Notes under the pieces: generated by a model
Told to the model about the DNA's origin: nothing
What the model saw: the letters and a program-made list of their open reading frames with translations, nothing else
The model's database searches: none
Translations under genes and position numbers: made by a program
Shown: piece after piece, positions 8,895 to 60,406 of the stretch
How the letters are laid out: each line of letters opens with the position of its first letter
How positions within the stretch are numbered: position 1 is the stretch's first letter
DNA from: a virus
Taxonomy: Duplodnaviria > Caudoviricetes
Virus record (IMG/VR): IMGVR_UViG_2808606779_000004
Location: 688 to 64,687 of that record
Length of the DNA: 64,000 bases
Strand: one strand, 5' to 3'

Positions 8895-9592
8895 TACTTC
8901 ACCGCCTTAAGATGGCGCTGGCGGCTCGCGTTGGCTATCAGGTATTTCTTGGCGTTTTCGAGCCGGTCGACACTGTCGCGCGCGTGGCCGAGAAGTAGGT
9001 TGCATTCCTGACACAGCAAACCCCGTACGCATTCGCCGCAAGATCCGATGCCGGGACAGCAGGCGTGATCGTGGTCGATGAACCAGCCGCGTGGGCCGGG
9101 TTCCTCCGTGGCGCAGATGCCACAGGCTCCGCGCTGAAGAATCAGCAGTTCATCGAACTGAGCCTGAGTCAGGTTGTACAGCTTCAGCTTCCGCTCGCGG
9201 CCATACCCACTCCGGTCGCGCCTGTCCGGTTTGCAGTCGACACACACCGGCTTGCCGACCTTGGCGACATCCAGAGACCCGCACGCGCAGCGTCGGGGAG
9301 CTCGTCGCGCCTCACGAATCGCCGCGTGCGCGTTGGCCCTACACCGTTCCGTGCAGTACTTCCGGCGTGTCCCTGGTCGCGCGGTGAACGTGAACTCGGT
9401 GTCGCAGTGCGGGCATGTCTTGGTGAGAGTCTGAGGCCGACGATCGCGGCGGGGGCGTGCCCGGTCGATCTCCCGTAGGCATTCCGAGCAGCGCCAGGAC
9501 AGACCGTCCGGGCTGGCATTGTCGCGCCCGAACTCGCTGACGGGCTTGGATTCCCGGCAGCGAGTACAGGTCTTGACGACGTCTACGGACAC
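8894..9592 (-). CDS. Endonuclease VII-family HNH endonuclease with N-terminal Zn fingers
   Basis: CGIC...IDHDHACC...C..CVRGLLCQECNLLLG motif. Confidence 0.85.
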   Translation of the reverse strand: MSVDVVKTCTRCRESKPVSEFGRDNASPDGLSWRCSECLREIDRARPRRDRRPQTLTKTCPHCDTEFTFTARPGTRRKYCTERCRANAHAAIREARRAPRRCACGSLDVAKVGKPVCVDCKPDRRDRSGYGRERKLKLYNLTQAQFDELLILQRGACGICATEEPGPRGWFIDHDHACCPGIGSCGECVRGLLCQECNLLLGHARDSVDRLENAKKYLIANASRQRHLKAVK

Positions 9593-9594
9593 GG

Positions 9595-9951
9595 TCAGCT
9601 CTCGCCGTTACCCTCGGCCGCGGTCCCGTCGCCGTCCTCGTCGTCTTTGTCGGCCTTGTCGTCTTTGTCGGCTGCCGGCTTGTTCACCGTGGCGAGGAAC
9701 GTGCCGAAGAACTCCCAGAACTCCTCCATAGACGGCGCGATCGTGTTCAACCGCTCCCACTGCGCCGGGCCGAGCAGATACTCGATACCGTCCGCGTTGT
9801 TCTTCCGCTGGAATGCCTGATGTGCCCGGGTCGGCCACTTCGCGCGAGACAGCGGGAACGTGAACTTCTGTCCGCGGAACTCGACGGTCGCTTCGTCGGA
9901 GTTCGCCTTCGCGGCGGGGTTTTGCGCTGCGGTGCGTGAGCGAGTTGCCAT
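9595..9951 (-). CDS. Tail assembly chaperone, G-like
   Basis: FRGQKFTFP...KWP...LLGPAQW motif; upstream of TMP. Confidence 0.7.
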   Translation of the reverse strand: MATRSRTAAQNPAAKANSDEATVEFRGQKFTFPLSRAKWPTRAHQAFQRKNNADGIEYLLGPAQWERLNTIAPSMEEFWEFFGTFLATVNKPAADKDDKADKDDEDGDGTAAEGNGES

Positions 9952-9952
9952 G

Positions 9953-10789
9953 TCAACTGGCCTTTCGTGGTTGGGATTCGAGATCGCGGCGGCGTGCCGC
10001 CATCGCCTTGTCGACCGCCGACAGGACCGCCGGCGGGGGTTCAAGGGTTCGGCGCGACGAGCCAGCGCGAACCTCTTCAGTGGCGGCCGACACCGCGGCC
10101 TTGCGCGCCTCGGCGCGCGCCCGGCTGGCCTCCGGGCTGTAGTAGTCCTGCTTGTCCGAAAGTTCCTGCATCTGCGCTTCGTTGGCCCGCTTCTGCGCAA
10201 GCAGCTCGGCGAGTTCCTCGGCGGTCAGCGGCCGGCCAAAGTACGGCTTGCGGGCGATTTGCTCCCAGATCTGCGCCAGCACGACAGCGGTCTTCGTCCA
10301 GGGCTCACTTCCGCCGTTGCGCGCGATCGCCAGCGCCGACGTCGGCTTCGGGCGCCGCACATAAACCCAGATCTGGCGAAGCGTCAGGTCACCGCGCCAC
10401 CGGTCCGCATAGTCGACGTGCCAGAAGTGCCGAAGATCGGACGCGACGTCGTCCTCGTAGTTGTCGAGGCAGTCGAGCAGCATCGGCACCGCGCCGAAGA
10501 TGTGCGCACCGAAGTACTTGTCGGGCAGCGGTTTCGTCTCCGGCAGCCGGGACACTCCGACCGCGGCGGCCATCGCATCGGACAGGGAAACGAGATCCTC
10601 GTAGAGGGGGACCGGGGCGGTCTGCCCGGCGAGCAGTTCCTCGACGGCATCGACGTAACCGCCGGTGCGGATCGCGTCGAGCGGCCAATCTTCCAGCGCC
10701 CGCGGGATAGTCAGCCGGTGGCCACGCCAGACGAACCCGACCTCGGGTTCGCCGAGCGCTTCCAATCGCGCTGCGTCACACGTAGTCAC
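9953..10789 (-). CDS. Tail assembly chaperone, GT-like (G domain in frame with T domain)
   Basis: N-term WRGHRLTIP...DWP...ELLAGQ aligns with the 9595 ORF; C-term DL...W..DY...W...LTLRQIWVYVR...SALA is T-like. Confidence 0.7.
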   Translation of the reverse strand: MTTCDAARLEALGEPEVGFVWRGHRLTIPRALEDWPLDAIRTGGYVDAVEELLAGQTAPVPLYEDLVSLSDAMAAAVGVSRLPETKPLPDKYFGAHIFGAVPMLLDCLDNYEDDVASDLRHFWHVDYADRWRGDLTLRQIWVYVRRPKPTSALAIARNGGSEPWTKTAVVLAQIWEQIARKPYFGRPLTAEELAELLAQKRANEAQMQELSDKQDYYSPEASRARAEARKAAVSAATEEVRAGSSRRTLEPPPAVLSAVDKAMAARRRDLESQPRKAS

Positions 10790-42522: not shown

Positions 42523-42596
42523 GGCCAGGTAGCTCAGTTGGTACGAGCGTCCGCCTGAAAAGCGGAAGGTCGCCGGTTCGATCCCGGCCCTGGCCA
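42523..42596 (+). tRNA. tRNA-Phe(GAA); likely attachment site of the right-hand island
   Basis: Cloverleaf, loop CTGAAAA; integrase gene ends 140 bp downstream. Confidence 0.97.
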
Positions 42597-42600
42597 CTTC

Positions 42601-42736: not shown

Positions 42737-43942
42737 TCACTCCGAAGCGGCGGCGTTTGGCTTCGCGCTCGTGATCGAGTTGAGCACCGCGGCGGCGTCG
42801 TTCAGCGCGTCGTTCGTCGAGTGCGCGTAGGTGCGCAGAGTGAACCCGGCGTCCTGGTGTCCGAGCCACGCGGCGATCACCACAACCGGTACCCCGCGCA
42901 TGTGCATCAGCGTCGCGCAGGAGTGCCGCGCGTCGTGCAGCCGGACGTGGGGGAGACCGGCGCCGGCGAGGGCGTTCTTCCATGCGTGCGTAATCGTGTC
43001 CGGGTGCGGGGCGTTGCCGAACTCGTCGACCACGACGAGACCGGAGTCCCGCCACTTCGACCCAAGCGCGAGCTTCGCCTCCCGCTGCCGCTTCCGTTCC
43101 GCCTTCAACGCGCGAGCCAGGTCTTCCGGCATCGGCAACGTCCTGGTACTCGTCTTCGTCTTCGTCGCGCCGGTGACGCTGCCGCCCGAAACGGCTAGGC
43201 GTGCGGCGGAGATCGCGACGGTTCCAGCGTCGAAGTCGACGGCGCCCCAGCTGAGCGCGAGGATCTCACCGCGGCGCAGACCGTAGACCGCCAGGTGCCA
43301 GGCGATCCCGAACGCATCGCCCGCCGTCGCGCTGAGCAGTTTCGTCACCTGGTCGGCGTCGAGCGTGTGCATCTCAGCCTTCTCCGTCGGCAACGACTTC
43401 ACGAGCGCGGCGGGGTTACGGACGACGATGCCCTGGTTCGTCAGGTCCTCGAAGATCGATCGGGTGCGGGCGAGCATCGGGTTGATCGACGTCGCGGCCC
43501 ACGCGGACCTCATCGTCTTCCTGTTCCTGGTGAGCTTCTCCGGCGCGTGCCAGGTGCCCATCTCTGACTTGCCCTCGCGCAGCGCGGTGACCACCTTCTC
43601 GATGTCGTCCTTCGTCACCTGTTGCACGGGCCGATCGCCGAGAGCGTCGACGAGCGGCCGCAGCGACGTCACATACGCCGACATAGTCTTCGGCCGGATG
43701 CGCTGACCGATCAGCCATGAGTCCACAGCCTGGCGCACTGTGATCTCCGACGGCGCGACATGCGTCCCGTGCGCGAGCTCGGAGACGACGGTGCTGCGCC
43801 ACTTCACCGCCGCCTCGACCGACTCGAACCTCTTCTTGTGCTGGAATCGGCTGCCGTCCGCACGCTGGCCGTGCACCCGCACCTCATACCTACGCCCCGC
43901 CGTCGTCTCGACGGGCTTCACCCAATCCGGTCGTCTCGCCAT
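42737..43942 (-). CDS. int: Tyrosine integrase of the island
   Basis: GLRRGE (R), LHDARH (HxxR), LGH, TYAH (Y); N-terminal arm-binding-like domain. Confidence 0.95.
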   Translation of the reverse strand: MARRPDWVKPVETTAGRRYEVRVHGQRADGSRFQHKKRFESVEAAVKWRSTVVSELAHGTHVAPSEITVRQAVDSWLIGQRIRPKTMSAYVTSLRPLVDALGDRPVQQVTKDDIEKVVTALREGKSEMGTWHAPEKLTRNRKTMRSAWAATSINPMLARTRSIFEDLTNQGIVVRNPAALVKSLPTEKAEMHTLDADQVTKLLSATAGDAFGIAWHLAVYGLRRGEILALSWGAVDFDAGTVAISAARLAVSGGSVTGATKTKTSTRTLPMPEDLARALKAERKRQREAKLALGSKWRDSGLVVVDEFGNAPHPDTITHAWKNALAGAGLPHVRLHDARHSCATLMHMRGVPVVVIAAWLGHQDAGFTLRTYAHSTNDALNDAAAVLNSITSAKPNAAASE

Positions 43943-44063
43943 GCGCTGGAGCATCCCAGGGTTTGCGGGGACCGTCGCCAGACCCGTAGGACACGCCGAG
44001 TGCCTTCGGCGTGTCGTCCCGGCTCGCGTGCAGTCGTCGGCTTCGTGGGCTTCGCTGAGTCAC

Positions 44064-51861: not shown

Positions 51862-52283
51862 CCCCCTCCGACCGCGCCGCCGAAGCACTCCGCGACCGAT
51901 TCCGCCGTGAAGAAGCGGCGCTGCACGCCGAGGGTTACCTCACCATCGCCGACACCATGGAGCTGCTCGGGGTCGCCCGCTTCACCGTGAACCGGATGAT
52001 CAAGGACGGACGCCTGCATGTCACGCGCTTCGAGGATCGCATCGTCACCCGACCGGAGTGGGTCGCCGCGGTGCCCCGCAGCCGTAAGGCCTCACCCGAG
52101 TGGCGGCGCGAACACGGGTGGCTCAGCACCGCCGAGGCCGCCGAGCTGGCGGGCATCACACCGCAGGCGATGAACGTGCGCATCCGCAAGGGGCAACAGG
52201 CTGCGGTGCGTGCCGGCGCCGACGCACCGACGCCCGGCGTGTGGCTGATCCGGGAGGCGGATGTGCGGGGGCAGGTGGCGTAG
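51858..52283 (+). CDS. Tandem Xis-like HTH protein
   Basis: YLTIADTMELLGV and WLSTAEAAELAGIT winged-HTH repeats; ATGA-coupled to the resolvase. Confidence 0.7.
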   Translation: MTPSDRAAEALRDRFRREEAALHAEGYLTIADTMELLGVARFTVNRMIKDGRLHVTRFEDRIVTRPEWVAAVPRSRKASPEWRREHGWLSTAEAAELAGITPQAMNVRIRKGQQAAVRAGADAPTPGVWLIREADVRGQVA

Positions 52284-52316
52284 TTCCCGCGCCGGGGGCC
52301 TACGACAAGTTGAGGG

Positions 52317-54857
52317 TCACGTGTACGCCATGCCCTCCTCGGCGAACATCGCCTCGATCAGGTTCTTGTTCGTGGCCTCGGCGATGCGCTCGTCGATGCC
52401 GTCCTTGGTCAGGTCGAGCGCCCGCATCACGCCATCGATCTCGGCCACCGCCAAGCACCGCCGAACTCGGTCGGGGTGGTCCTGGGCGTACTTGGAGAGC
52501 GCGGCCCACTTCGCGTGAGTGTCGGCGAGGCTGTGGTTGTGCGGATCGACGATGTCCATCACGTACTTGCCGTCACCCTCGTCATGCCAAAACAGGAAGT
52601 CGGGGTGCATCAGCTGGTACTTGTCGCCGAACTCATACGGCACCGCGAGGGCGTGCTTCCCCGAGGACGGGTTCCGGTACCAGCCGACGAGGGTGGTCGC
52701 CTTGAGCTCAGCTCCGAGCACCGCGGCTTCCCAGGACGACCGGGAGGTGTCGACGGGGAACTCGCCGGCGTTCGGCTTCCCGTCCGGGATCACGTACAGA
52801 TGCGACGGGTACGTCGTGATCGGCTCAGTGGTCCCACCGCGCACCTTCTCAGTCGCCGCGGCGTAGACATCGCGGGCCTCGACCGTCGTCGGCAGCATGG
52901 GCGTGGAGCCGGTGTGCCACAGCGGTTCGATCTGGTCCCGGATGTGGCGGGGTTGCCGTGATACCTCGGACTGATACTGGTTGCGCCACGTGCTCATCAG
53001 CGCCGCGGCTTGGGTCTCGACGGTCTCCTTGAATCCGAGCTCGGCCATCGCGGTCAGGCGCGCCATTGCGTCGACCTCGTCCTCGCCGCGGTCGCACAGG
53101 TCGTTGAAGTACCAGTTGGCCGAGCCGTCTGGCAGGACGCGGCGAGCGCGGCGGAAGTACCCGTCGAGATCACGCTCGTTCGTGGGGATGTCGCTCTTCC
53201 CCTCGCTGAGCATGATCATCTCGCCGTACTCGACAACCGTGGTGTTGATCGTCAGCGACAGGATGTCCTTGGTCTTCGCATCGACTTCGCCGCTACGCTG
53301 GCCGTCCGCGGCCCGCATCTGGTCGACGATCCACTGTCTGGCCTTCGCCGACCCCTGCTCCACGAAGTTGTGCTCGGTGAGCGCCGCTGCGAGACGCATC
53401 AGCTGCGCGGTACGCGAAGCGAACGTGGCCCGCTGCCGCGTGTACGACGGCAAGGTGTCGAGCAGGTCGAACACTTCGGTCGGCACCTTGGAGGAGCGCT
53501 CGCACACCACCGGGGCCACCACGATGTCGACCTCGACGGTCTCGTCCTCGGTCAGCGCGTTCACGACCTTGGCGACGTGCTCGGCCCGGAAGCCTGGGAG
53601 GTAGGCGGCCACTTCGTTCAGGCGATCGTCGCCGTCGACGCGCTTGGCCAGCGGAGTGCGCACGAGCCGGCCGATCAGCTGCGCGATCTCGGTGAAGCTG
53701 TCCTTGTTCTGGAAGCTGATCATCACCTCCGCGCGGGGGCAGTCCCAGCCGGTGGTCAGCGCCGACTTGAACAGCACCACCCGCGCCCGGTCGTCGCCCG
53801 CGATGGCCTCCGGGGCCAGGTACCGCACGGTCTTCTCGCCCACCTTGAGCGGGCCGTGCGGGTCGCCGAAGGCATGCGCGATGGCGTAGTCGGTGAGCTC
53901 CGGCCAGGTCGACGAGATCACTGAGAGGATCTCCGCCAGCCGAGCTTCGGTGACCTTCGGCTCCACCTGGACCACAAGCAGCGGTTCCACCGGCCGGTCG
54001 CCCGTGGTCTCGTGGTGGGTCCGCCACGCCTCGTCGGAGGTCTTCAGGTCCTCGACAGCCAGGGCGAGCATCGTGTTGTCGGCCGCCTGGGTCTCACCGA
54101 CGCTGCGGAGCAGGATGCGGTCCTTGAGCAAGCCGGACTCGCGGACGTCGCCCGGCCGGACTGCATACAGACGTTGCGTGCGGTTCGCCGCCTTCATCGC
54201 TGCATCGAACTTGTCGGGGGTTGCCGAGATGCCGAGAACGACCGGCGCCGCCGGCTGGACCGTGCCGATGTTGGTCGGGCCGCCACCGACGATGGTGCCG
54301 GCGATCGTCTTGCGGTCGGTTGCAGTCGTTCCAGATCCGCGGTGCGCCTCGTCCCAGATCACAATGAAGTCCTCGCCGCGCTCGCGCACGGTGTTGGCGA
54401 TCATGTCCCACACGCCGTGGGTCCGCTTGTCGTTGCGGGTGCCGTCGGCGCGCACCGCGTGCAAGGTGGAGTTCTTCTGCAGTGCCTGGATGTGCACGAA
54501 GTAGATCAGTCCCGGTTCGAGGGTGCGCTGATCTTCCTCGGCGAGGAACCGGATCCGGTTGACGTCGATCCTGCCGCCGGACGCGGTGGTGATCTTGCTG
54601 ATCGTCTGGGCGTTGAGTGCGCGGTCGTCAGTGATCCACAGAACGGTGGTGTTCGGCCTCGGATCCCGGGTCGGTGTACCCAGGTAGATCCCTTCGAGCA
54701 CCGCGGTCGCGATCACGGTCTTCCCCGCGGCGGTCGGGGCGGTGAGACCGACAGCCGTGTGCTCGCCGTCCTCCATGTAGTCGCGGCGCGCCTTGGTAAG
54801 GCTGGACAGCAGTGCATCGACGGCATCGCTCTGGTACGGCTCGAGCGTGAACTTCAT
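52317..54857 (-). CDS. res: Type III restriction endonuclease subunit (SF2 helicase plus nuclease)
   Basis: APTAAGKT, WDEAH, TGWDCPRA, Q..GR..R, C-terminal PDFLF...D..DPH. Confidence 0.9.
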   Translation of the reverse strand: MKFTLEPYQSDAVDALLSSLTKARRDYMEDGEHTAVGLTAPTAAGKTVIATAVLEGIYLGTPTRDPRPNTTVLWITDDRALNAQTISKITTASGGRIDVNRIRFLAEEDQRTLEPGLIYFVHIQALQKNSTLHAVRADGTRNDKRTHGVWDMIANTVRERGEDFIVIWDEAHRGSGTTATDRKTIAGTIVGGGPTNIGTVQPAAPVVLGISATPDKFDAAMKAANRTQRLYAVRPGDVRESGLLKDRILLRSVGETQAADNTMLALAVEDLKTSDEAWRTHHETTGDRPVEPLLVVQVEPKVTEARLAEILSVISSTWPELTDYAIAHAFGDPHGPLKVGEKTVRYLAPEAIAGDDRARVVLFKSALTTGWDCPRAEVMISFQNKDSFTEIAQLIGRLVRTPLAKRVDGDDRLNEVAAYLPGFRAEHVAKVVNALTEDETVEVDIVVAPVVCERSSKVPTEVFDLLDTLPSYTRQRATFASRTAQLMRLAAALTEHNFVEQGSAKARQWIVDQMRAADGQRSGEVDAKTKDILSLTINTTVVEYGEMIMLSEGKSDIPTNERDLDGYFRRARRVLPDGSANWYFNDLCDRGEDEVDAMARLTAMAELGFKETVETQAAALMSTWRNQYQSEVSRQPRHIRDQIEPLWHTGSTPMLPTTVEARDVYAAATEKVRGGTTEPITTYPSHLYVIPDGKPNAGEFPVDTSRSSWEAAVLGAELKATTLVGWYRNPSSGKHALAVPYEFGDKYQLMHPDFLFWHDEGDGKYVMDIVDPHNHSLADTHAKWAALSKYAQDHPDRVRRCLAVAEIDGVMRALDLTKDGIDERIAEATNKNLIEAMFAEEGMAYT

Positions 54858-56938
54858 CGGATACCCCCGGAGAAGTTGACCGTGCAGTTCAGCAGGTAGT
54901 CCTCGTAGAGCTGGACGGTGTCGACCCCGACAGGTAGTCGCTCGACCGCCTGCTGATACTCGGCGAGGGAGTCGGTGACGATGAACAGCACCCCGGGTGG
55001 TTCGCCGGTGGTAGCGGCGGTGGTGACGGCATCCGCGAATGCGACGAGGGTGTCGATGTCGAACAGCACCCCGTAGGTAGCGGTGAGCGCCCAGCCCTCA
55101 CCGGGGTCGGCTTCGATTCGATCCCCACGGGCTCCGCCCTGGAGCCAGAACAGCGGTGCCAACCTGGGGAACTCGATGCCCCGCCGGGCCGAGGAGGGGT
55201 CGAGGTAGACGAGATCGAACATCTCCACGTTCGCCGGCAGACCATCGGAATACTCGGAGCCGTCCGGGCGCACTCCCTTCACCACGGTCGAGATCCGCGG
55301 GCGGCACACGTACTCGAAGATGCCCTTGGACTCCCACTCGGCATCACCCGGATGGAGGCCGGCCTTCCGCAGCTTCTTTGCCTCGGTGGCCGACAACTCG
55401 TTGTTGGTCACCAGGATGGCCTGCCGGTTCCCACCATCCTCAGCGTTGAGACGCATCACCGCTTCGGTGGTGGTGCCGGAGCCGGCGAAGAAGTCGAGGA
55501 TGACGGCGTCGGGGTTGCCCTGACCGAACCCCAACAGGATGTCGGTGAGGAGATCGAGCGGCTTCGGATACGGGAACCGCGCTTCGCCCAAGATTTCGGA
55601 CAGTGCCTTGTTCCCCCGGTTGGTTCGATGGCCGGGTTCGCGCCAGATGGTTGGGACTGAGGTCCCAGCGGTCGTGCCCGCACCGAAGATGAGAGTGGGC
55701 ACTCCCTCCTCCTGCCCGCTCGGAACGAGCACACCCTGCTGGTACTTCTTCTGGTTCCCTCCCGCGATGTACTGGATCCGGTAGTTGTCCTTGCCCTGCA
55801 ACTTCTCGGGGGTGATCCGGATGAGCCCCGCCTCCCAATCCGCGAGCAGCGACTCGGGGATCAGCCGCCATACGCATTCCTTGCCCTGACTGGTTATCGG
55901 CCACACGGCCATGCAGCCGTCCGGGGTCTCGTCGGTGTCGAACACGAAGTCGGCCTTGTCCCCGGTGTACTCACCGCTGCTGATCAGTTGGCCGAGGCTC
56001 TTACCGACTCCTCGCAGGGCGCCAGTCTCGATGTCGACGAAGATCGGGTAGGCCTGGTTGGGCCGCGTCACCGGCGTGAAGGTGGTCAGAGTCATCCGTT
56101 CCCACGGGCTTCGGGCTACTCCTCCGGTGAACGTGGTGGCGCACGGCTCGAATGTCTCAGGGGTAATCGCGATGAGGTACTCGTGCATGTAGTCGAGGCC
56201 GTTGGAAGGCTTGCCGCCACTGGTCTGGACCGTGATGCACTGCACGGATCGAGAACGGAACAACTGCTCGCACAAGCACATGAGGCGATGCACTTCCTGC
56301 GTCCCGATGCTGATGCAGATGACGCCGCGCGGCTTGAGCAGGTCCCGCGCGATGACCAGTCGCCGCTCCAAGAACGACAGCCACTTCGACGACTTCGCCC
56401 GGTCGGCCTGGTCCACGTACCGGTCGTTGTAGATCCAGCCGTCGTTGCCGGTGTTGTAGGGCGGATCGATGTAGATCAGGTCGATCTTCTCGCGGTGGGT
56501 CGTGCGTAGCGCCTGCAGAGCGTGGTAGTTCTCGCCGTTGATCACCACGTGCCACGGGGCGTCCTCGGGACCGTTCGGGATCTGCTCCACCGAGCGCAGG
56601 CCGGGGTAGATCGGCTCCCCGAACTCCCGGACGACGGCGAGGTCGTCCACCGGTCGCTCGCCACCGTCACCGCTGAGGACGGCGACCTTGCGGTCCTGGT
56701 CGGCGAACCCTACGACGATCCAGGTGTCGGTGCTCGACTCGTCACGCAGCGAGACACGGACGCCCTTGCGGATCGGGTAGTCGACCAGGCGGACGGACTC
56801 CGGCAGGTGCCGGTCGAAGACGAGACCGAAGTGGCGGGAGCCGCGCAGCAGGTCCACCTCACGGGCAAGGTGGCTGCGCAGTGACTCGTCCCCGACACGA
56901 CTGATCAACTGGTCGAGGATGTTGGTCTCGTCGGCCAT
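54854..56938 (-). CDS. mod: Type III methyltransferase subunit
   Basis: GENYHAL, IYIDPPYNTG, FPYPKP..LL, LDFFAGSGTT; ATGA overlap with res. Confidence 0.92.
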   Translation of the reverse strand: MADETNILDQLISRVGDESLRSHLAREVDLLRGSRHFGLVFDRHLPESVRLVDYPIRKGVRVSLRDESSTDTWIVVGFADQDRKVAVLSGDGGERPVDDLAVVREFGEPIYPGLRSVEQIPNGPEDAPWHVVINGENYHALQALRTTHREKIDLIYIDPPYNTGNDGWIYNDRYVDQADRAKSSKWLSFLERRLVIARDLLKPRGVICISIGTQEVHRLMCLCEQLFRSRSVQCITVQTSGGKPSNGLDYMHEYLIAITPETFEPCATTFTGGVARSPWERMTLTTFTPVTRPNQAYPIFVDIETGALRGVGKSLGQLISSGEYTGDKADFVFDTDETPDGCMAVWPITSQGKECVWRLIPESLLADWEAGLIRITPEKLQGKDNYRIQYIAGGNQKKYQQGVLVPSGQEEGVPTLIFGAGTTAGTSVPTIWREPGHRTNRGNKALSEILGEARFPYPKPLDLLTDILLGFGQGNPDAVILDFFAGSGTTTEAVMRLNAEDGGNRQAILVTNNELSATEAKKLRKAGLHPGDAEWESKGIFEYVCRPRISTVVKGVRPDGSEYSDGLPANVEMFDLVYLDPSSARRGIEFPRLAPLFWLQGGARGDRIEADPGEGWALTATYGVLFDIDTLVAFADAVTTAATTGEPPGVLFIVTDSLAEYQQAVERLPVGVDTVQLYEDYLLNCTVNFSGGIR

Positions 56939-57081
56939 GCGGTCCTTCCCATTGCGGGCAGCAGTAGGTACGAAGAACTTCTAAATATCTGCGGGCAGAT
57001 TGACCATCGTGAACTCCGCAGTTGACCAGCCTAATCTGTGGCGCCGACACTCTTGGCGAGGCGCGAAGGTCAGTCGTGGAC

Positions 57082-57936
57082 TCAGAAGTCCTGGTCCACC
57101 CGGCGCAAGATGTTCGCGAGCATGATCACCGAGTCCGCGGCGATGCCGGCCTCCCGCCGCGTGGGCGCGGTCGAGTGCTTCACGCTGTGCGCCAGCTCGA
57201 TCACCTTGTTCGCGACACCGCGGATCGCCTCGTTGTCGCTGCCCGCGAGCGAGTCCTCGACGTACCTGCCGATGCGCTGCTTGGTCTTGTCGGCCGGCGG
57301 CTCGGTCTCGCCATCGCGGAGGTGCACGTCGGGGTCGTAGATGGTGCGGCTGAGGGCCTCCAGCACGCCGACGGCGCGGTTACCGACGTCGCGGTAGTCC
57401 TGCGTGGTGGTGGCGGTGCGGAAGCGCCGGCGAAGCTCGGTGAGCTCCTCATCCACCTTCGGCCAGCCCGTCTTAGTGTGCGGCGACACCGCCTCGGCGT
57501 TCACTGCTCGGAACTGGGCGTCCTCCTGCCGATCCAGCTCCGCTTGTACCGGGGCGAACAACTCGTTGAGCAGCTCGCGGCGGGCGTGCCAGGAGTTGTA
57601 GCAGCCGTTGCGCAACCAGTGAGCCTTGAAGCTGGTGAAGTCCCGCCACGGGAAGCTCAGCGTGATACCGATGCGCGAGAGGGTTGCGGTGAGTGCGCGC
57701 TGCGCGATTGCGACTTCCTTGTCGTCGAGGGTGTTACCACCGCCGGTGCCGAACGCGATCAGCTCATCCCATACGAGGTGGGTGAGCGCGACCGCGGCGT
57801 CGAGGTCGTCCGTTCCGGCCACGGGACCGGCCGCCAGTTCCTTCAGGAATGCTCGACGCAGCTTGGTCGTCGTGGTCGTGCCGCTGGTCCACGGACTGAT
57901 CGTCTCGCGCTCTTCGAAGAAATCATCCGGCCCCAT
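57082..57936 (-). CDS. Abi/HEPN-like protein (AbiJ/Abi_C-type, tentative)
   Basis: W..V..E...L.RRF..A....DYRDVG......LEALS...K.....AH.VKH pattern; all-helical. Confidence 0.6.
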   Translation of the reverse strand: MGPDDFFEERETISPWTSGTTTTTKLRRAFLKELAAGPVAGTDDLDAAVALTHLVWDELIAFGTGGGNTLDDKEVAIAQRALTATLSRIGITLSFPWRDFTSFKAHWLRNGCYNSWHARRELLNELFAPVQAELDRQEDAQFRAVNAEAVSPHTKTGWPKVDEELTELRRRFRTATTTQDYRDVGNRAVGVLEALSRTIYDPDVHLRDGETEPPADKTKQRIGRYVEDSLAGSDNEAIRGVANKVIELAHSVKHSTAPTRREAGIAADSVIMLANILRRVDQDF

Positions 57937-58011
57937 GAGGGTCGACGCTACCGATTCCCCGCGACATGCATCGCATGCTGATCTGCGGGATTCGGCTCCC
58001 TGCCCAGCTGT

Positions 58012-58689
58012 CTACTTCCGGCCCCGCTGGAACCGCCAGATCGCGTGGTCGAGAGCCGTGGGCGACATGTCGAGTTCTGGCGCCGCGGCGGTCACGATCT
58101 CGGCGGCGTACGCCGTGTCGACGCTGCGACGAGGTACCTCCAGCGCGTCGGCCACGAACCTGATGATCATCCGATCGGGCTTCACGCCGGGGACACCGGC
58201 GAGCATCAGCACGTACCGCCACGTAATCCCCGAGCGCTGGCCCTTCACCTCGCACCACGCCTTCCGCACCCGCTCCAACCGCGCCTCGTCGTCGGCGGCC
58301 GCGCGGAGAGCGGTGGTGCTGTCGATCCCCTCGGCGGCGAGCACGCGGGCCGCGTCCCGGATCGCCGCCGCCTTCAAGACCCCGCCGCGGGTGGAGGTGC
58401 GGTTACGGGTGCCGATCCGCGCCGCCCAGCCGTCCGGGCCACCGCACTCGTCGAAGGTGGCCAGCAGCTCCGCGGCGCCGTCAGCCGCCGGTTCGCCGTC
58501 CTGTTCTCGGCGGTAGGCGCGGTAGCGGTCGAGTACCTTTCCCACGCTGCTGTAGGTGACGCCGGTGGACTGCACGCTGTCGATCATGCAGAGGGCGAGA
58601 CCGTCCCGGTAACCCTTCGGTGCCTCCGAGCCGCGGAACTGCTCGCAGGCGGCGACGAGGGCGTGGAGCTGCTCGGCTGTGTGGGGCAT
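58012..58689 (-). CDS. HhH-fold DNA glycosylase-like protein
   Basis: LALC.IDSV.S..V.Y..V...; VKGQRSGITWRY.LMLAG.PGVKPDRMI.RFV (HhH followed by conserved Asp). Confidence 0.7.
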   Translation of the reverse strand: MPHTAEQLHALVAACEQFRGSEAPKGYRDGLALCMIDSVQSTGVTYSSVGKVLDRYRAYRREQDGEPAADGAAELLATFDECGGPDGWAARIGTRNRTSTRGGVLKAAAIRDAARVLAAEGIDSTTALRAAADDEARLERVRKAWCEVKGQRSGITWRYVLMLAGVPGVKPDRMIIRFVADALEVPRRSVDTAYAAEIVTAAAPELDMSPTALDHAIWRFQRGRK

Positions 58690-58728
58690 GGGCGACAGCG
58701 TCGCACGGCGGGGTGACAGCGCGGACCG

Positions 58729-59238
58729 CTATTCGCCGCCGAGCGCCCTGGCGAACGCGACCTTGAACTCCGCCTGCCGTCCCGACGACGGGAACGGGAT
58801 GCGCACCTTGCTGACCGGCAGGCCCGTGTCGGCCACCGCGGTGTACGCCGCGTCGTAGACGTCGGTCTTGATCAGGATGATGCGTTCGGGTTCCAGCTCC
58901 GCGATCCGGTGCAGTAGAGCCGGAACGTGCGGCCTCAGCTCCGACAGGCTGGCCCGGCTGTTCACGATGGGGTCAGGCTTCAGATCGATCAGGAACACGC
59001 CGCGGTCGCGCAGCTGCTCCAGGAGGGCCGCCTTGTTGTCCCTGGTGAGTCCGGCGTCCGGCAGGAGCGCCCGCACGACCGCCCAGAACAGCCAGTCGTG
59101 CTGCGCCACGTCGGGGAAGTAGAAGTAGCGATCGTCGGCCTCGGGCGGAGCTTGCGCTACCAGGAGCAGCCGGATTGTGTCGGGCTGGTACTGCCTGGCA
59201 GCAGCAGCCCGGCGCTCGCGGACCTCGGCGTTGGTCAT
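58729..59238 (-). CDS. UDG-fold protein
   Basis: Y.P..IRLLLVAQAPP....YFY; GVFLIDL...P; IPFPS. Confidence 0.7.
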   Translation of the reverse strand: MTNAEVRERRAAAARQYQPDTIRLLLVAQAPPEADDRYFYFPDVAQHDWLFWAVVRALLPDAGLTRDNKAALLEQLRDRGVFLIDLKPDPIVNSRASLSELRPHVPALLHRIAELEPERIILIKTDVYDAAYTAVADTGLPVSKVRIPFPSSGRQAEFKVAFARALGGE

Positions 59239-59549
59239 TCCCCGGCGCGGTCCACGCACTCCCACCGCTTCCACGTGCCGACCGGATACGTCCGCAGCAC
59301 CACACCGAGGTAGATGATCTCGAGGGTGCCCTCGTTCTCGTCGGCGCGCAGCTTCTCCACGTCGAGGTATCGGGTGCCCGCGACGTGCTCCACTTCGCCG
59401 GAGCTCAACCACACTGTGACGGCTCCCCGCCCGGACATCAGGCACTCGGCGTAGTAGCGCGAGTCGCACTCCATCACCGACGTGGCCATCGGCCCCGACG
59501 CTGCGTAGAACCGCTCGGCCGCCGTCACATCACTGCTGCTGTTAGTCAT
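59235..59549 (-). CDS. Hypothetical protein coupled to the UDG-fold gene
   Basis: ATGA overlap at 59235-59238; start uncertain. Confidence 0.45.
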   Translation of the reverse strand: MTNSSSDVTAAERFYAASGPMATSVMECDSRYYAECLMSGRGAVTVWLSSGEVEHVAGTRYLDVEKLRADENEGTLEIIYLGVVLRTYPVGTWKRWECVDRAGE

Positions 59550-59631
59550 GCTGGAAACGCTACTTCGGGACCGTGCAGACGCCCCCGCGCGTGAACCGCT
59601 GGTGATTGCGCGGCGGGTCGCCTCCCCGTAG

Positions 59632-59937
59632 GTGTTCTCTGTTTTAGAGAATCAGCGCGTGTACAACGAGGTCCGTGTTCCGTTCTCCCTCGACGATCTT
59701 CCCGAGGGTGAATCGATCGCCCTCCACGATGTCGACGGCTTCATCCCGTACCTGACCGAGCGATGGCCGGAAGGCGGGCGGCCCGACCGCGTGGAGATAT
59801 CCGGGCCGGGTGCCCCCAAGAGCGTCGATGGGTGGATCGTGTTCCGCCTACCGCCGCGGGAGCAAGAAGCGGATCCGGATGCGAAGGTCATCGACTGGGA
59901 GCAGTTGCGGCCGCAGCAGCGGGAGAAGGAAGACTAG
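59632..59937 (+). CDS. Hypothetical protein
   Basis: 101 aa with normal composition. Confidence 0.45.
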   Translation: MFSVLENQRVYNEVRVPFSLDDLPEGESIALHDVDGFIPYLTERWPEGGRPDRVEISGPGAPKSVDGWIVFRLPPREQEADPDAKVIDWEQLRPQQREKED

Positions 59938-60008
59938 CTTCTGCGGTCCAAGGCGGTAAGCCGCCCAAACTCGGCGGAGTTTCCGGAGTGTCGCGGCTCT
60001 GCGGCACT

Positions 60009-60350
60009 CGCGGTCGCGCGGTCAGGATCGCGGTCGTGAACCGCGGTGGATTCCGCTGGTCACAGCGTTTCGCGGTCGCGCGGTCGCCGCGGTCGAGGGG
60101 GACCCCCTGGGTGCCTCTCTCCGCGTAGGAGAAGTAGTTAGAAGAAGCAAGAAAATTGGTGCTTCGTATCTAGGACATTTCGGACATTTTCAAGAGACAG
60201 ACCCTCAGAGCGTTTCCCTGGGGGGGGTACCGACCGCGGCGACCGCGCGACCGCGATTGAGGCAAAAACATGTCCTGAACTGCACGAACCACCGCGGTCA
60301 TTCGCAACGCTAACGACCGCGATCGCGGTCGTTTCCGCGGTTTCGCGGTC
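60009..60350. repeat. Iteron array (CGCGGTC/GACCGCG) around an A/T-richer core: putative replication origin
   Basis: Six CGCGGTC at 60009-60094, three GACCGCG at 60232-60255, 26-bp perfect IR 60070-60095/60231-60256, 22-bp palindrome 60312-60333. Confidence 0.8.
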
Positions 60351-60363
60351 GCCCGATACGCAG

Positions 60364-60390
60364 AACGCCCCGCCGAGATGGCGGGGCGTT
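60364..60390. terminator. Hairpin downstream of the helicase gene
   Basis: AACGCCCCGCC-gagat-GGCGGGGCGTT. Confidence 0.7.
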
Positions 60391-60406
60391 CCTGTTAGCC
60401 GGTGTG

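Follow-up and report, generated by a model that had tools for sequence, protein, structure and literature searches.

The window considered here is the whole of a 64,000-nucleotide stretch from an IMG/VR provirus record (IMGVR_UViG_2808606779_000004, positions 688 to 64,687), and its host genome is Mycobacterium-like. Two adjacent genes on its minus strand encode small proteins of 169 and 225 amino acids (aa) that carry motifs of DNA glycosylases. The first is referred to as the uracil-DNA glycosylase-like (UDG-like) gene and its family as A1, and the second as the helix-hairpin-helix-like (HhH-like) gene and its family as A3. Both genes ride a mobile island, where they are preceded by a 104-aa open reading frame (ORF) and followed by a 284-aa gene and by the mod and res genes of a type III restriction-modification (R-M) system (Table 1). 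A preliminary description, made from the sequence letters alone, had taken the pair for twin genes that head a block of R-M and abortive infection (Abi) genes and had proposed them as a candidate for a new defence system.

The reading frames of this cassette are tightly packed. The UDG-like gene begins with the ATG at 59238. A GTG further upstream would yield a 246-aa ORF, which was rejected as an over-extension that overlaps the 104-aa ORF in another frame. The 104-aa ORF is the small coupled upstream frame already noticed in the preliminary description, and its stop codon overlaps the UDG-like start (ATGA). A gap of 39 nt separates the UDG-like gene from the HhH-like gene. None of the 104-, 169-, 225- and 284-aa proteins scores above threshold in Pfam, NCBIfam or PADLOC, and searches of PDB sequences with the single proteins and with an A1 profile gave no meaningful match. 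The Pfam UDG model PF03167 reaches 16.7 bits against the UDG-like protein (E 0.008), below its cut-off of 24.3.

Structural modelling confirms that the UDG-like gene product has a genuine UDG-superfamily fold, with an alpha/beta architecture and a central four-stranded parallel sheet. An AlphaFold2 (AF2) model computed from the family alignment has a predicted local distance difference test (pLDDT) score of 92.8. Its best Foldseek match is Escherichia coli MUG (1mug; TM score 0.61, E 2.8e-4), and the Foldseek probability is 1.00 against MUG, TDG and SMUG1. VIA-align superposes 147 residues of the model on 1mug with a Z score of 11.7 and a root-mean-square deviation (rmsd) of 3.3. After MUG, the structural ranking runs through TDG, SMUG1, the family-4 UDGs and UdgX, and families 1-4 together with UdgX have Z scores of 8.6-11.

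Enzymes of this superfamily place a water-activating polar residue in the loop after strand beta-1, within motif A types such as GQDPY, GINPG and GEAPG. The UDG-type motif A that had been singled out in the window (LLVAQAPP) lies exactly there, as LLLVAQAPP directly following beta-1 in the 169-aa protein. Among the 62 loci with a motif A, the loop reads AEAPP in 41, a form that resembles the family-4 GEAPG, while AEGPP and GEAPP occur in two each and AQAPP in 17. The AQAPP loci, which are the window and 16 others, constitute a whole mycobacterial subclade. Motif B follows beta-4 as IPFPSSG, with Phe replacing His, and the atypical PFPS noted earlier in place of HPS is both real and family-wide: FP[GS]SG is present in 79 of 91 ORF hits, all 79 with Phe, and His is never seen.

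Residues D85, D48, D129, K124 and Q155 and a YFYF cluster are invariant across the A1 alignment. Uracil-specific UDGs carry an Asn after beta-2 that recognizes the Watson-Crick face of the base. Asp85 also follows beta-2 and falls on this canonical Asn in a weak hhalign match (E 0.12). An invariant Asp in the place of the Asn would argue against uracil as the target and would fit an amino-bearing or otherwise modified base. Catalysis by the window subclade is not assured, because its motif A carries Gln and its motif B has no His.

Four Mycobacterium-type loci encode a UDG-like domain joined at its C-terminal side to DUF6308 (Pfam 3e-50). This domain holds LPGVDWVIAGKLLAAKRPRLIPILD, which resembles an HhH hairpin followed by an Asp. 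A comparison of DUF6308 with the HhH-like profile by hhalign (E 0.14) and a comparison with PDB sequences showed no relation. If DUF6308 were an HhH-type domain, these proteins would be natural fusions of a UDG fold with an HhH fold.

The HhH-like gene product is confirmed by its model to have a genuine HhH-GPD fold, which is two-lobed and all-helical. The AF2 model, again built from the family alignment, has a pLDDT of 97.5. VIA-align places Helicobacter pylori MagIII first (1pu6; Z 15.5, rmsd 2.6, 187 residues), followed by Mag1, MjOgg, EndoIII, OGG1 and MutY, and its best 50 matches are all HhH-GPD enzymes or a related queuine-salvage enzyme. The call of two glycosylase folds, which had been made from motifs alone, was therefore right by Foldseek and VIA-align.

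Conservation in A3 was assessed over 67 diverse sequences of 33-65% identity. The window protein carries ...GITWRYVLMLAGVPGVKPDRMIIRF, and hairpin and loop take the form PGQxSGI(S/T)W...LAGxxGVKPD in the family, with the window loop GVPGVKPD ending at Asp172. This is the KPD aspartate of the initial motif call, and it is invariant in all 67 sequences, as are K106 and W218. D37, S41, Y56, W145, G150, Y159, K170 and D214 are nearly invariant. Trp218 lies in a C-terminal LDHAIW. None of the 67 members reaches a glycosylase Pfam model, and the window protein matches the uncharacterised PHROG 29694 (2e-16).

When the A3 profile is compared with PDB sequences, it aligns to the Ogg2-type 8-oxoguanine glycosylases 9o02/9o00 (E 0.11). 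In this alignment D172 falls on the catalytic Asp of IIDRHI and LDHAIW on MDLRIW. The bifunctional HhH-GPD glycosylase/apurinic-apyrimidinic (AP) lyases, such as EndoIII, Ogg1 and Ogg2, have a catalytic Lys in the second helix of the HhH, about 18 residues before the Asp. In A3 a Gly sits at the catalytic Lys of GLGMKEAS, and K106 and K170 lie elsewhere. Since the canonical catalytic Lys is absent, the HhH-like enzyme is predicted to be monofunctional. Its catalytic Asp, its missing Lys and a D-x-x-x-W arrangement as in Ogg2-type enzymes predict a purine-type glycosylase. A role for the HhH-like protein as an AP-lyase partner that nicks abasic sites made by the UDG-like protein was set aside because the canonical Lys is missing.

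The HhH-like domain also occurs in larger proteins (Table 1). SIR2_2 proteins 743 and 674 aa long carry it at their C-terminal end, and the 743-aa protein adjoins PglX/PglW-like and Schlafen/AlbA genes in a BREX/Pgl island. Further fusions join it to MazG-like, DnaB_C, EcsC and TPR domains.

A conserved twin unit heading an R-M/Abi block is not supported by a survey of other loci. An HhH-like gene lies within 10 kb of the UDG-like gene at none of 67 species-level loci, which span Actinomycetota, Planctomycetota, Bacteroidota and others. Five mycobacterial genomes have the UDG-like gene, and only one of them also has the HhH-like gene, on another contig. Only a single group of Mycobacteriales islands (L005, L137 and L138) and one Tn7-like element of Gordonia bronchialis (L073) have the two genes near each other, in the orders given in Table 1. 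The G. bronchialis cassette encodes proteins 82-98% identical to those of the window, and its flanks differ, consisting of DUF488 and a type IIG R-M system. The UDG-like and HhH-like genes are thus independent cargo beside R-M genes and not a fixed two-enzyme system.

In the G. bronchialis element the frameshifted HhH gene (L073:8511-10136, 9034-9270) reads into the 284-aa frame and is annotated as a 529-aa protein. The same state is present in two assemblies and two Logan contigs.

The mod and res genes that had been assigned downstream are borne out by Pfam and PADLOC as encoding the Mod and Res subunits of a type III R-M system, and the res start overlaps the mod end. The mod gene is 89% identical to that of L005 and 85% to that of L137, and res is 90% identical to that of L005. 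A separate clade of HhH-like paralogues (support 100/99) is always situated directly upstream of type III mod-res, in three island types, and in two of these a PIN gene precedes the paralogue. The window HhH-like copy falls outside this clade. Judged from these sequence relationships, the window is mosaic and brings together two cassettes, 104-UDG-HhH-284 and mod-res, that move separately.

The 104-aa ORF has no match in Pfam, NCBIfam, PHROG or PADLOC. Conserved counterparts with 80% and 88% identity stand immediately before the UDG-like gene in L005 and G. bronchialis L073, respectively. Other A1 members have no such ORF upstream and carry a PIN_3 or PhdYeFM gene instead. For example, a PIN_3 gene overlaps the UDG-like gene by 4 bp in a member of the Solirubrobacterales (L077:7346-8504), and a PhdYeFM antitoxin gene precedes it in Mycobacterium sp. 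ST-F2 (L091:9657-10528).

No neighbour accompanies the AQAPP subclade more faithfully than the 284-aa gene. It lies directly 3' of the UDG-like gene in L007, L008/L091, L010, L060 and L092, and L073, L093-95 and L137 have both genes on one island. Its family is found exclusively with AQAPP members. The Abi-like label originally given to it is not confirmed. None of 36 family members matches an Abi model, and the sole support for the label is the name 'Abortive infection protein-like C-terminal domain', which two homologues bear in UniRef.

Table 1. Coordinates of features in the window, and location or gene order of related genes elsewhere
Feature	Location	Strand	Remarks
104-aa ORF	59235..59549	-	family without a name; translationally coupled to the UDG-like gene
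UDG-like gene (A1)	58729..59238	-	169 aa; UDG-superfamily fold
HhH-like gene (A3)	58012..58689	-	225 aa; HhH-GPD fold
284-aa gene	57082..57936	-	no family model match
Type III mod	54854..56938	-	Mod methyltransferase; Pfam N6_N4_Mtase 9e-27; PADLOC MTase_III PDLC03645 4.4e-119
Type III res	52317..54857	-	Res subunit; Pfam ResIII 3e-11; PADLOC REase_III 4.9e-10
Tyrosine integrase	42737..43954	-	island end; Pfam Phage_integrase 4.5e-20; adjoins tRNA-Phe
tRNA-Phe	42523-42597		tRNA at the integrase
Repeat-rich non-coding stretch	59990..60395	.	CGCGGTC/GACCGCG repeats seen in sequence; iteron-like
101-aa ORF	59632-59937	+	divergent; no family match
Cassette in L005			HhH - 104 - UDG - HhH - mod - res
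Cassette in L137, L138			rep - gap - 185/189 aa - UDG - MDMPI_N gene - (397 aa) - HhH - ...
Cassette in G. bronchialis L073			104 - UDG - HhH - 284; Tn7-like element
UDG-like-DUF6308 fusions	L011:9995-11119, L012:9995-11122, L014:4414-5541, L071:3696-4403
HhH-like paralogues linked to mod-res	L005:12008-12688, L093:19290-19973, L137:17038-17721
HhH-like fusion proteins	L088:8001-10232 (P0300), also P0340, P0245, P0256
Phage A3 homologues	KU878088.1 (AR9), MF360957.1 (PBS1), OM728297.1, MW749003.1		annotated N-glycosylase

The island ends at a tyrosine integrase beside tRNA-Phe. At the other side of the cargo, a repeat-rich stretch separates the cassette from an 883-aa replication-type gene upstream and is a putative island origin, judging from its iteron-like repeats. 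Related islands show a similar space, with 430-850 bp separating a Prim-Pol/AAA_25 gene from the first cargo gene. A divergent 101-aa ORF between the cassette and the repeats is 61% identical to an ORF of the Mycobacteroides abscessus islands L080-L084 and may encode an island regulator. A scan of positions 52000-60400 for promoters and terminators found nothing that exceeds shuffled expectation. Two RNA-seq runs with the same species label placed zero reads on the stretch, which says nothing on expression; the strains used probably do not have the island, because no reads fell on it.

The occurrence of both families was surveyed in 401 Mycobacteriales genomes, centred on the Mycobacterium genome of locus L009. 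The UDG-like gene is present in one of these, with two additional marginal hits. Carriers of the HhH-like gene number 29, and the two sets do not overlap. Both families are patchy accessory genes. They reside on islands and Tn7-like elements, and the HhH-like gene is also found on eight actinobacterial and other plasmids. The phage and plasmid collections contain no match to the UDG-like protein. Copies of the HhH-like gene on islands are split into paralogous clades, with at most two copies per island, and chromosomal copies form a clade separate from those of islands and plasmids.

The defence-island setting proposed for the pair holds for its close relatives. These lie near R-M systems of type III, type IIG/ISP and MmeI type. 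Some adjoin a GHKL/PLD-SNF2 cluster with MmeI, and others are near AIPR and PLD/MZB/helicase/MmeI-methylase (DISARM-like) genes. AAA_13, DUF4365, Hypoth_Ymh, PIN and Phd modules, Mrr and Abi_alpha are also found in these neighbourhoods. It does not extend to an unbiased sample of chromosomal HhH-like copies, whose neighbours are mostly ordinary.

Two arrangements involving these families may be mentioned here. In three Mycobacteriales genomes (L119, L121 and L122, ~9700-10400), a close HhH-like homologue is accompanied by unknown genes that differ from genome to genome, in a variable spot that has the suf operon on one side and an ABC-F-type gene on the other and may be a small integration hot spot. 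In M. abscessus (L093:10001-13194, also L094 and L095), four glycosylase-like genes follow a Prim-Pol/AAA_25 replication gene. An A1 UDG-like gene comes first, a PF03167 UDG gene with a PF21790 OGG gene immediately behind it comes second, and PIN, HhH-like and type III mod genes stand further on. An hhalign comparison of the HhH-like profile with this PF21790 'OGG' gene found nothing.

Stand-alone antiviral glycosylases, which the preliminary description invoked as precedent, have indeed been published. Those with a UDG fold are Brig1, which acts on alpha-glucosyl-5-hydroxymethylcytosine, Brig2, which acts on modified thymidines, and Brig3 with its helper BapA, which acts on 5-hydroxymethylcytosine (PMC11078745; bioRxiv 10.1101/2025.10.29.685425; bioRxiv 10.64898/2026.02.25.707755). 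Those with an HhH fold are Dag1, Dag2 and many integron-borne Dags, which are anti-phage proteins that target 7-deazaguanine DNA (bioRxiv 10.1101/2025.10.29.685425). For Dag and Brig2, an enrichment next to defence genes of roughly 40-45% against 3% has been reported. Defence glycosylases are an established class, and A1 and A3 resemble it in fold and size, in mobility and in escaping family models. They would be further members, and the candidate for a new system would instead be a set of independent cargo genes within the known class.

Like Brig, A1 is a small UDG-fold protein that is missed by standard family models, with many members from Actinobacteria and in defence islands. Glu147 of Brig1 occupies the Watson-Crick-face position and is required for immunity (PMC11078745), and the invariant acidic Asp85 of A1 is at a topologically equivalent place, as far as a weak alignment indicates. 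An ADP-ribosylglycohydrolase gene follows the A1 member in L043, and such a gene has also been reported as a neighbour of Brig1 and Brig3. In other respects the proteins differ. Brig1 reads LGLNPG after beta-1 and its tested homologues have 266 and 475 aa, whereas the A1 protein of 169 aa is about 100 residues shorter than Brig1, has A[EQ]APP and FP[GS]SG, and in the window subclade carries the motif-A Gln. None of the A1 motifs is present in the Brig1 supplementary files. By motifs and length, A1 appears to be a sequence family different from Brig1.

Similarly, A3 shares with the Dags an HhH-GPD fold, a length of ~200-250 aa, invisibility to family models and a location on mobile DNA. Dag1 needs D184, W188 and a Lys and is reported to be bifunctional with a Lys-Asp pair (bioRxiv 10.1101/2025.10.29.685425). 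Compared with this published description, A3 has D214 and W218 with the same D-x-x-x-W spacing, in addition to K106, a likeness of residue pattern that is a lead only. In contrast to the Lys-Asp pair of Dag1, A3 has Gly at the canonical Lys position in the Ogg2 alignment, and while the Dags belong to Vibrio integrons, the host range of A3 is that of Mycobacteriales islands.

Repair glycosylases supply the other standard of comparison. A3 has the topology and the post-hairpin catalytic Asp of MagIII, Mag1, Ogg2 (MjOgg) and EndoIII (Z 15.5-13), and A1 has the overall topology of MUG, TDG and SMUG1, which represent UDG families 2 and 3 (Z 11.7-10.5). Unlike these enzymes, A1 and A3 reach no curated model threshold, with identities of only 10-17%, and they are patchy and mobile where repair glycosylases belong to the core genome. 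Their active sites differ as well, with an apparent Asn to Asp and a His to Phe replacement in A1 and no Lys in A3.

The remaining relatives of A3 are annotated 'N-glycosylase' proteins of the Bacillus jumbo phages AR9, PBS1, Goe21 and Internexus, with ~30% identity over 94-95% of the length (E 1e-15 to 3e-14). Unlike A3, the AR9/PBS1-type homologues are encoded by phages, whose DNA has uracil instead of thymine, and their role may be offensive or counter-defensive. Literature searches turned up no description of the A1 or A3 families.

The explanation that we favour, with a probability of roughly one half, is that the two genes encode independent, stand-alone, monofunctional and modification-dependent defence glycosylases of new sequence families, carried as island cargo and analogous to Brig and Dag. 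Each gene would be horizontally shuffled cargo that codes for a small, single-domain, glycosylase-like enzyme. Such an enzyme would flip out a non-canonical base that a phage has placed in its own DNA and cut the N-glycosidic bond, leaving abasic sites that block replication, while host DNA with canonical bases would be spared. By analogy to Brig1 Glu147, the target of the UDG-fold enzyme may be an amino-bearing pyrimidine or another non-uracil base. The type III R-M system would be complemented loosely, through the clustering of defence genes, and the components would not be subunits of one machine. Alongside the observed folds, conserved residues, mobility, patchy distribution and neighbourhoods, we infer catalysis, a substrate and phage protection for both proteins.

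Several observations weigh against this explanation. The UDG-like subclade of the window has Gln where 45 of the 62 motif-A loci have Glu, and the motif-B His is absent throughout A1. A frameshift near profile position 168, immediately ahead of KPD, interrupts the HhH-like gene of G. bronchialis. Around the HhH-like gene of 15 Mycobacteriales genomes, each representing a species, most of the larger neighbours are unknown or housekeeping genes (the suf operon in three genomes, a major facilitator superfamily (MFS) transporter, a sigma factor, an oxidoreductase), with just a few integrases or AriA/GajA-like ATPases nearby. Finally, the A3 homologues of uracil-DNA Bacillus phages indicate that the fold serves phages too.

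The first of these observations can also be read as a sign of proteins that sense more than they destroy. Both folds might act as base-flipping readers of modified foreign DNA that have weak or no catalysis and switch on linked effectors, which we consider unlikely. The replacement of Glu by Gln coincides exactly with the subclade linked to the 284-aa gene, that gene family is exclusive to it, and A1 has no motif-B His. An equally low probability applies to the partners that would then be implicated, the 284-aa protein for the AQAPP UDG-like proteins and SIR2, MazG or other domains for the HhH-like domain, although the latter is C-terminal to SIR2_2 in the two proteins described above, one of them in a BREX/Pgl island, and is fused to MazG-like and DnaB_C domains. 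It would be just as speculative to extend this idea to mycobacterial islands as collections of reader/enzyme arrays, with up to four glycosylase-like genes serving as interchangeable specificity cassettes. Invariance of Asp172 and of other polar pocket residues in A3 is what is expected of an enzyme, and the AQAPP members L005, L006, L009 and L019 have no 284-aa gene within 10 kb. Distinctly unlikely is a role in the service of the island itself, in which the proteins would interfere with a helper or competing phage or plasmid, counter host defences or process the island's own replicating DNA. At least six related islands place these genes first and co-directional after the Prim-Pol/AAA_25 gene and the origin-like gap, the window belongs to a provirus record with a prophage across the same tRNA cluster, and PBS1/AR9 jumbo phages carry HhH-like homologues. 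The genes are nevertheless not confined to such islands: Tn7-like elements and plasmids carry them too, and there are solitary chromosomal copies. Moreover, satellite cargo that blocks phages is in practice also host defence, so that this proposal overlaps the defence-glycosylase explanation.

More doubtful still is the original proposal of a single cooperative system, in which the UDG-like and HhH-like proteins would head a layered R-M/Abi operon. Unmodified DNA would be cut by Res, differently modified DNA would be attacked by the two glycosylases, and the 284-aa protein would act as an abortive fail-safe. In the window the genes share one orientation with little space between them, their order 104-UDG-HhH-284 is repeated in G. 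bronchialis, and they lie 1-3 kb apart in L005, L137 and L138. A pairing of the two folds recurs with other families in M. abscessus, where PF03167 is beside PF21790, and Brig3-BapA provides a known two-gene glycosylase operon. Against these points stand the lack of linkage at all 67 UDG-like loci, the complete absence of the HhH-like gene from four of the five genomes with a UDG-like gene, and at least five loci at which the 284-aa gene directly follows the UDG-like gene without an HhH gene between them. The HhH gene of the G. bronchialis copy is frameshifted, mod-res moves separately with its own HhH paralogue clade that excludes the window copy, and the Abi assignment is unconfirmed. It is very improbable that both proteins are ordinary base-excision repair paralogues for common lesions, carried by chance on mobile DNA. 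Their folds are those of repair enzymes, some HhH-like copies are in conserved chromosomal synteny beside suf, and there is a distant HhH-like subgroup (L133-L136). Housekeeping glycosylases, however, are near-universal, while these genes are present in <1% and ~7% of Mycobacteriales genomes. In A1 the motif-B His gives way to Phe and the uracil-recognition Asn apparently to Asp, and no curated repair family model is reached.

If the proteins are active, A1 and A3 would add two sequence families to the defence glycosylases and would be the first candidates from Mycobacteriales, including the islands of Mycobacteroides abscessus. DNA with 7-deazaguanine has been reported for some mycobacteriophages. 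Activity of these proteins would bear on the failure of some mycobacteriophages on clinical strains, as well as on a possible disadvantage there of phages with modified DNA. The SIR2-HhH-like and UDG-like-DUF6308 fusions and the multi-glycosylase islands offer handles on whether base flipping serves sensing in addition to destruction.

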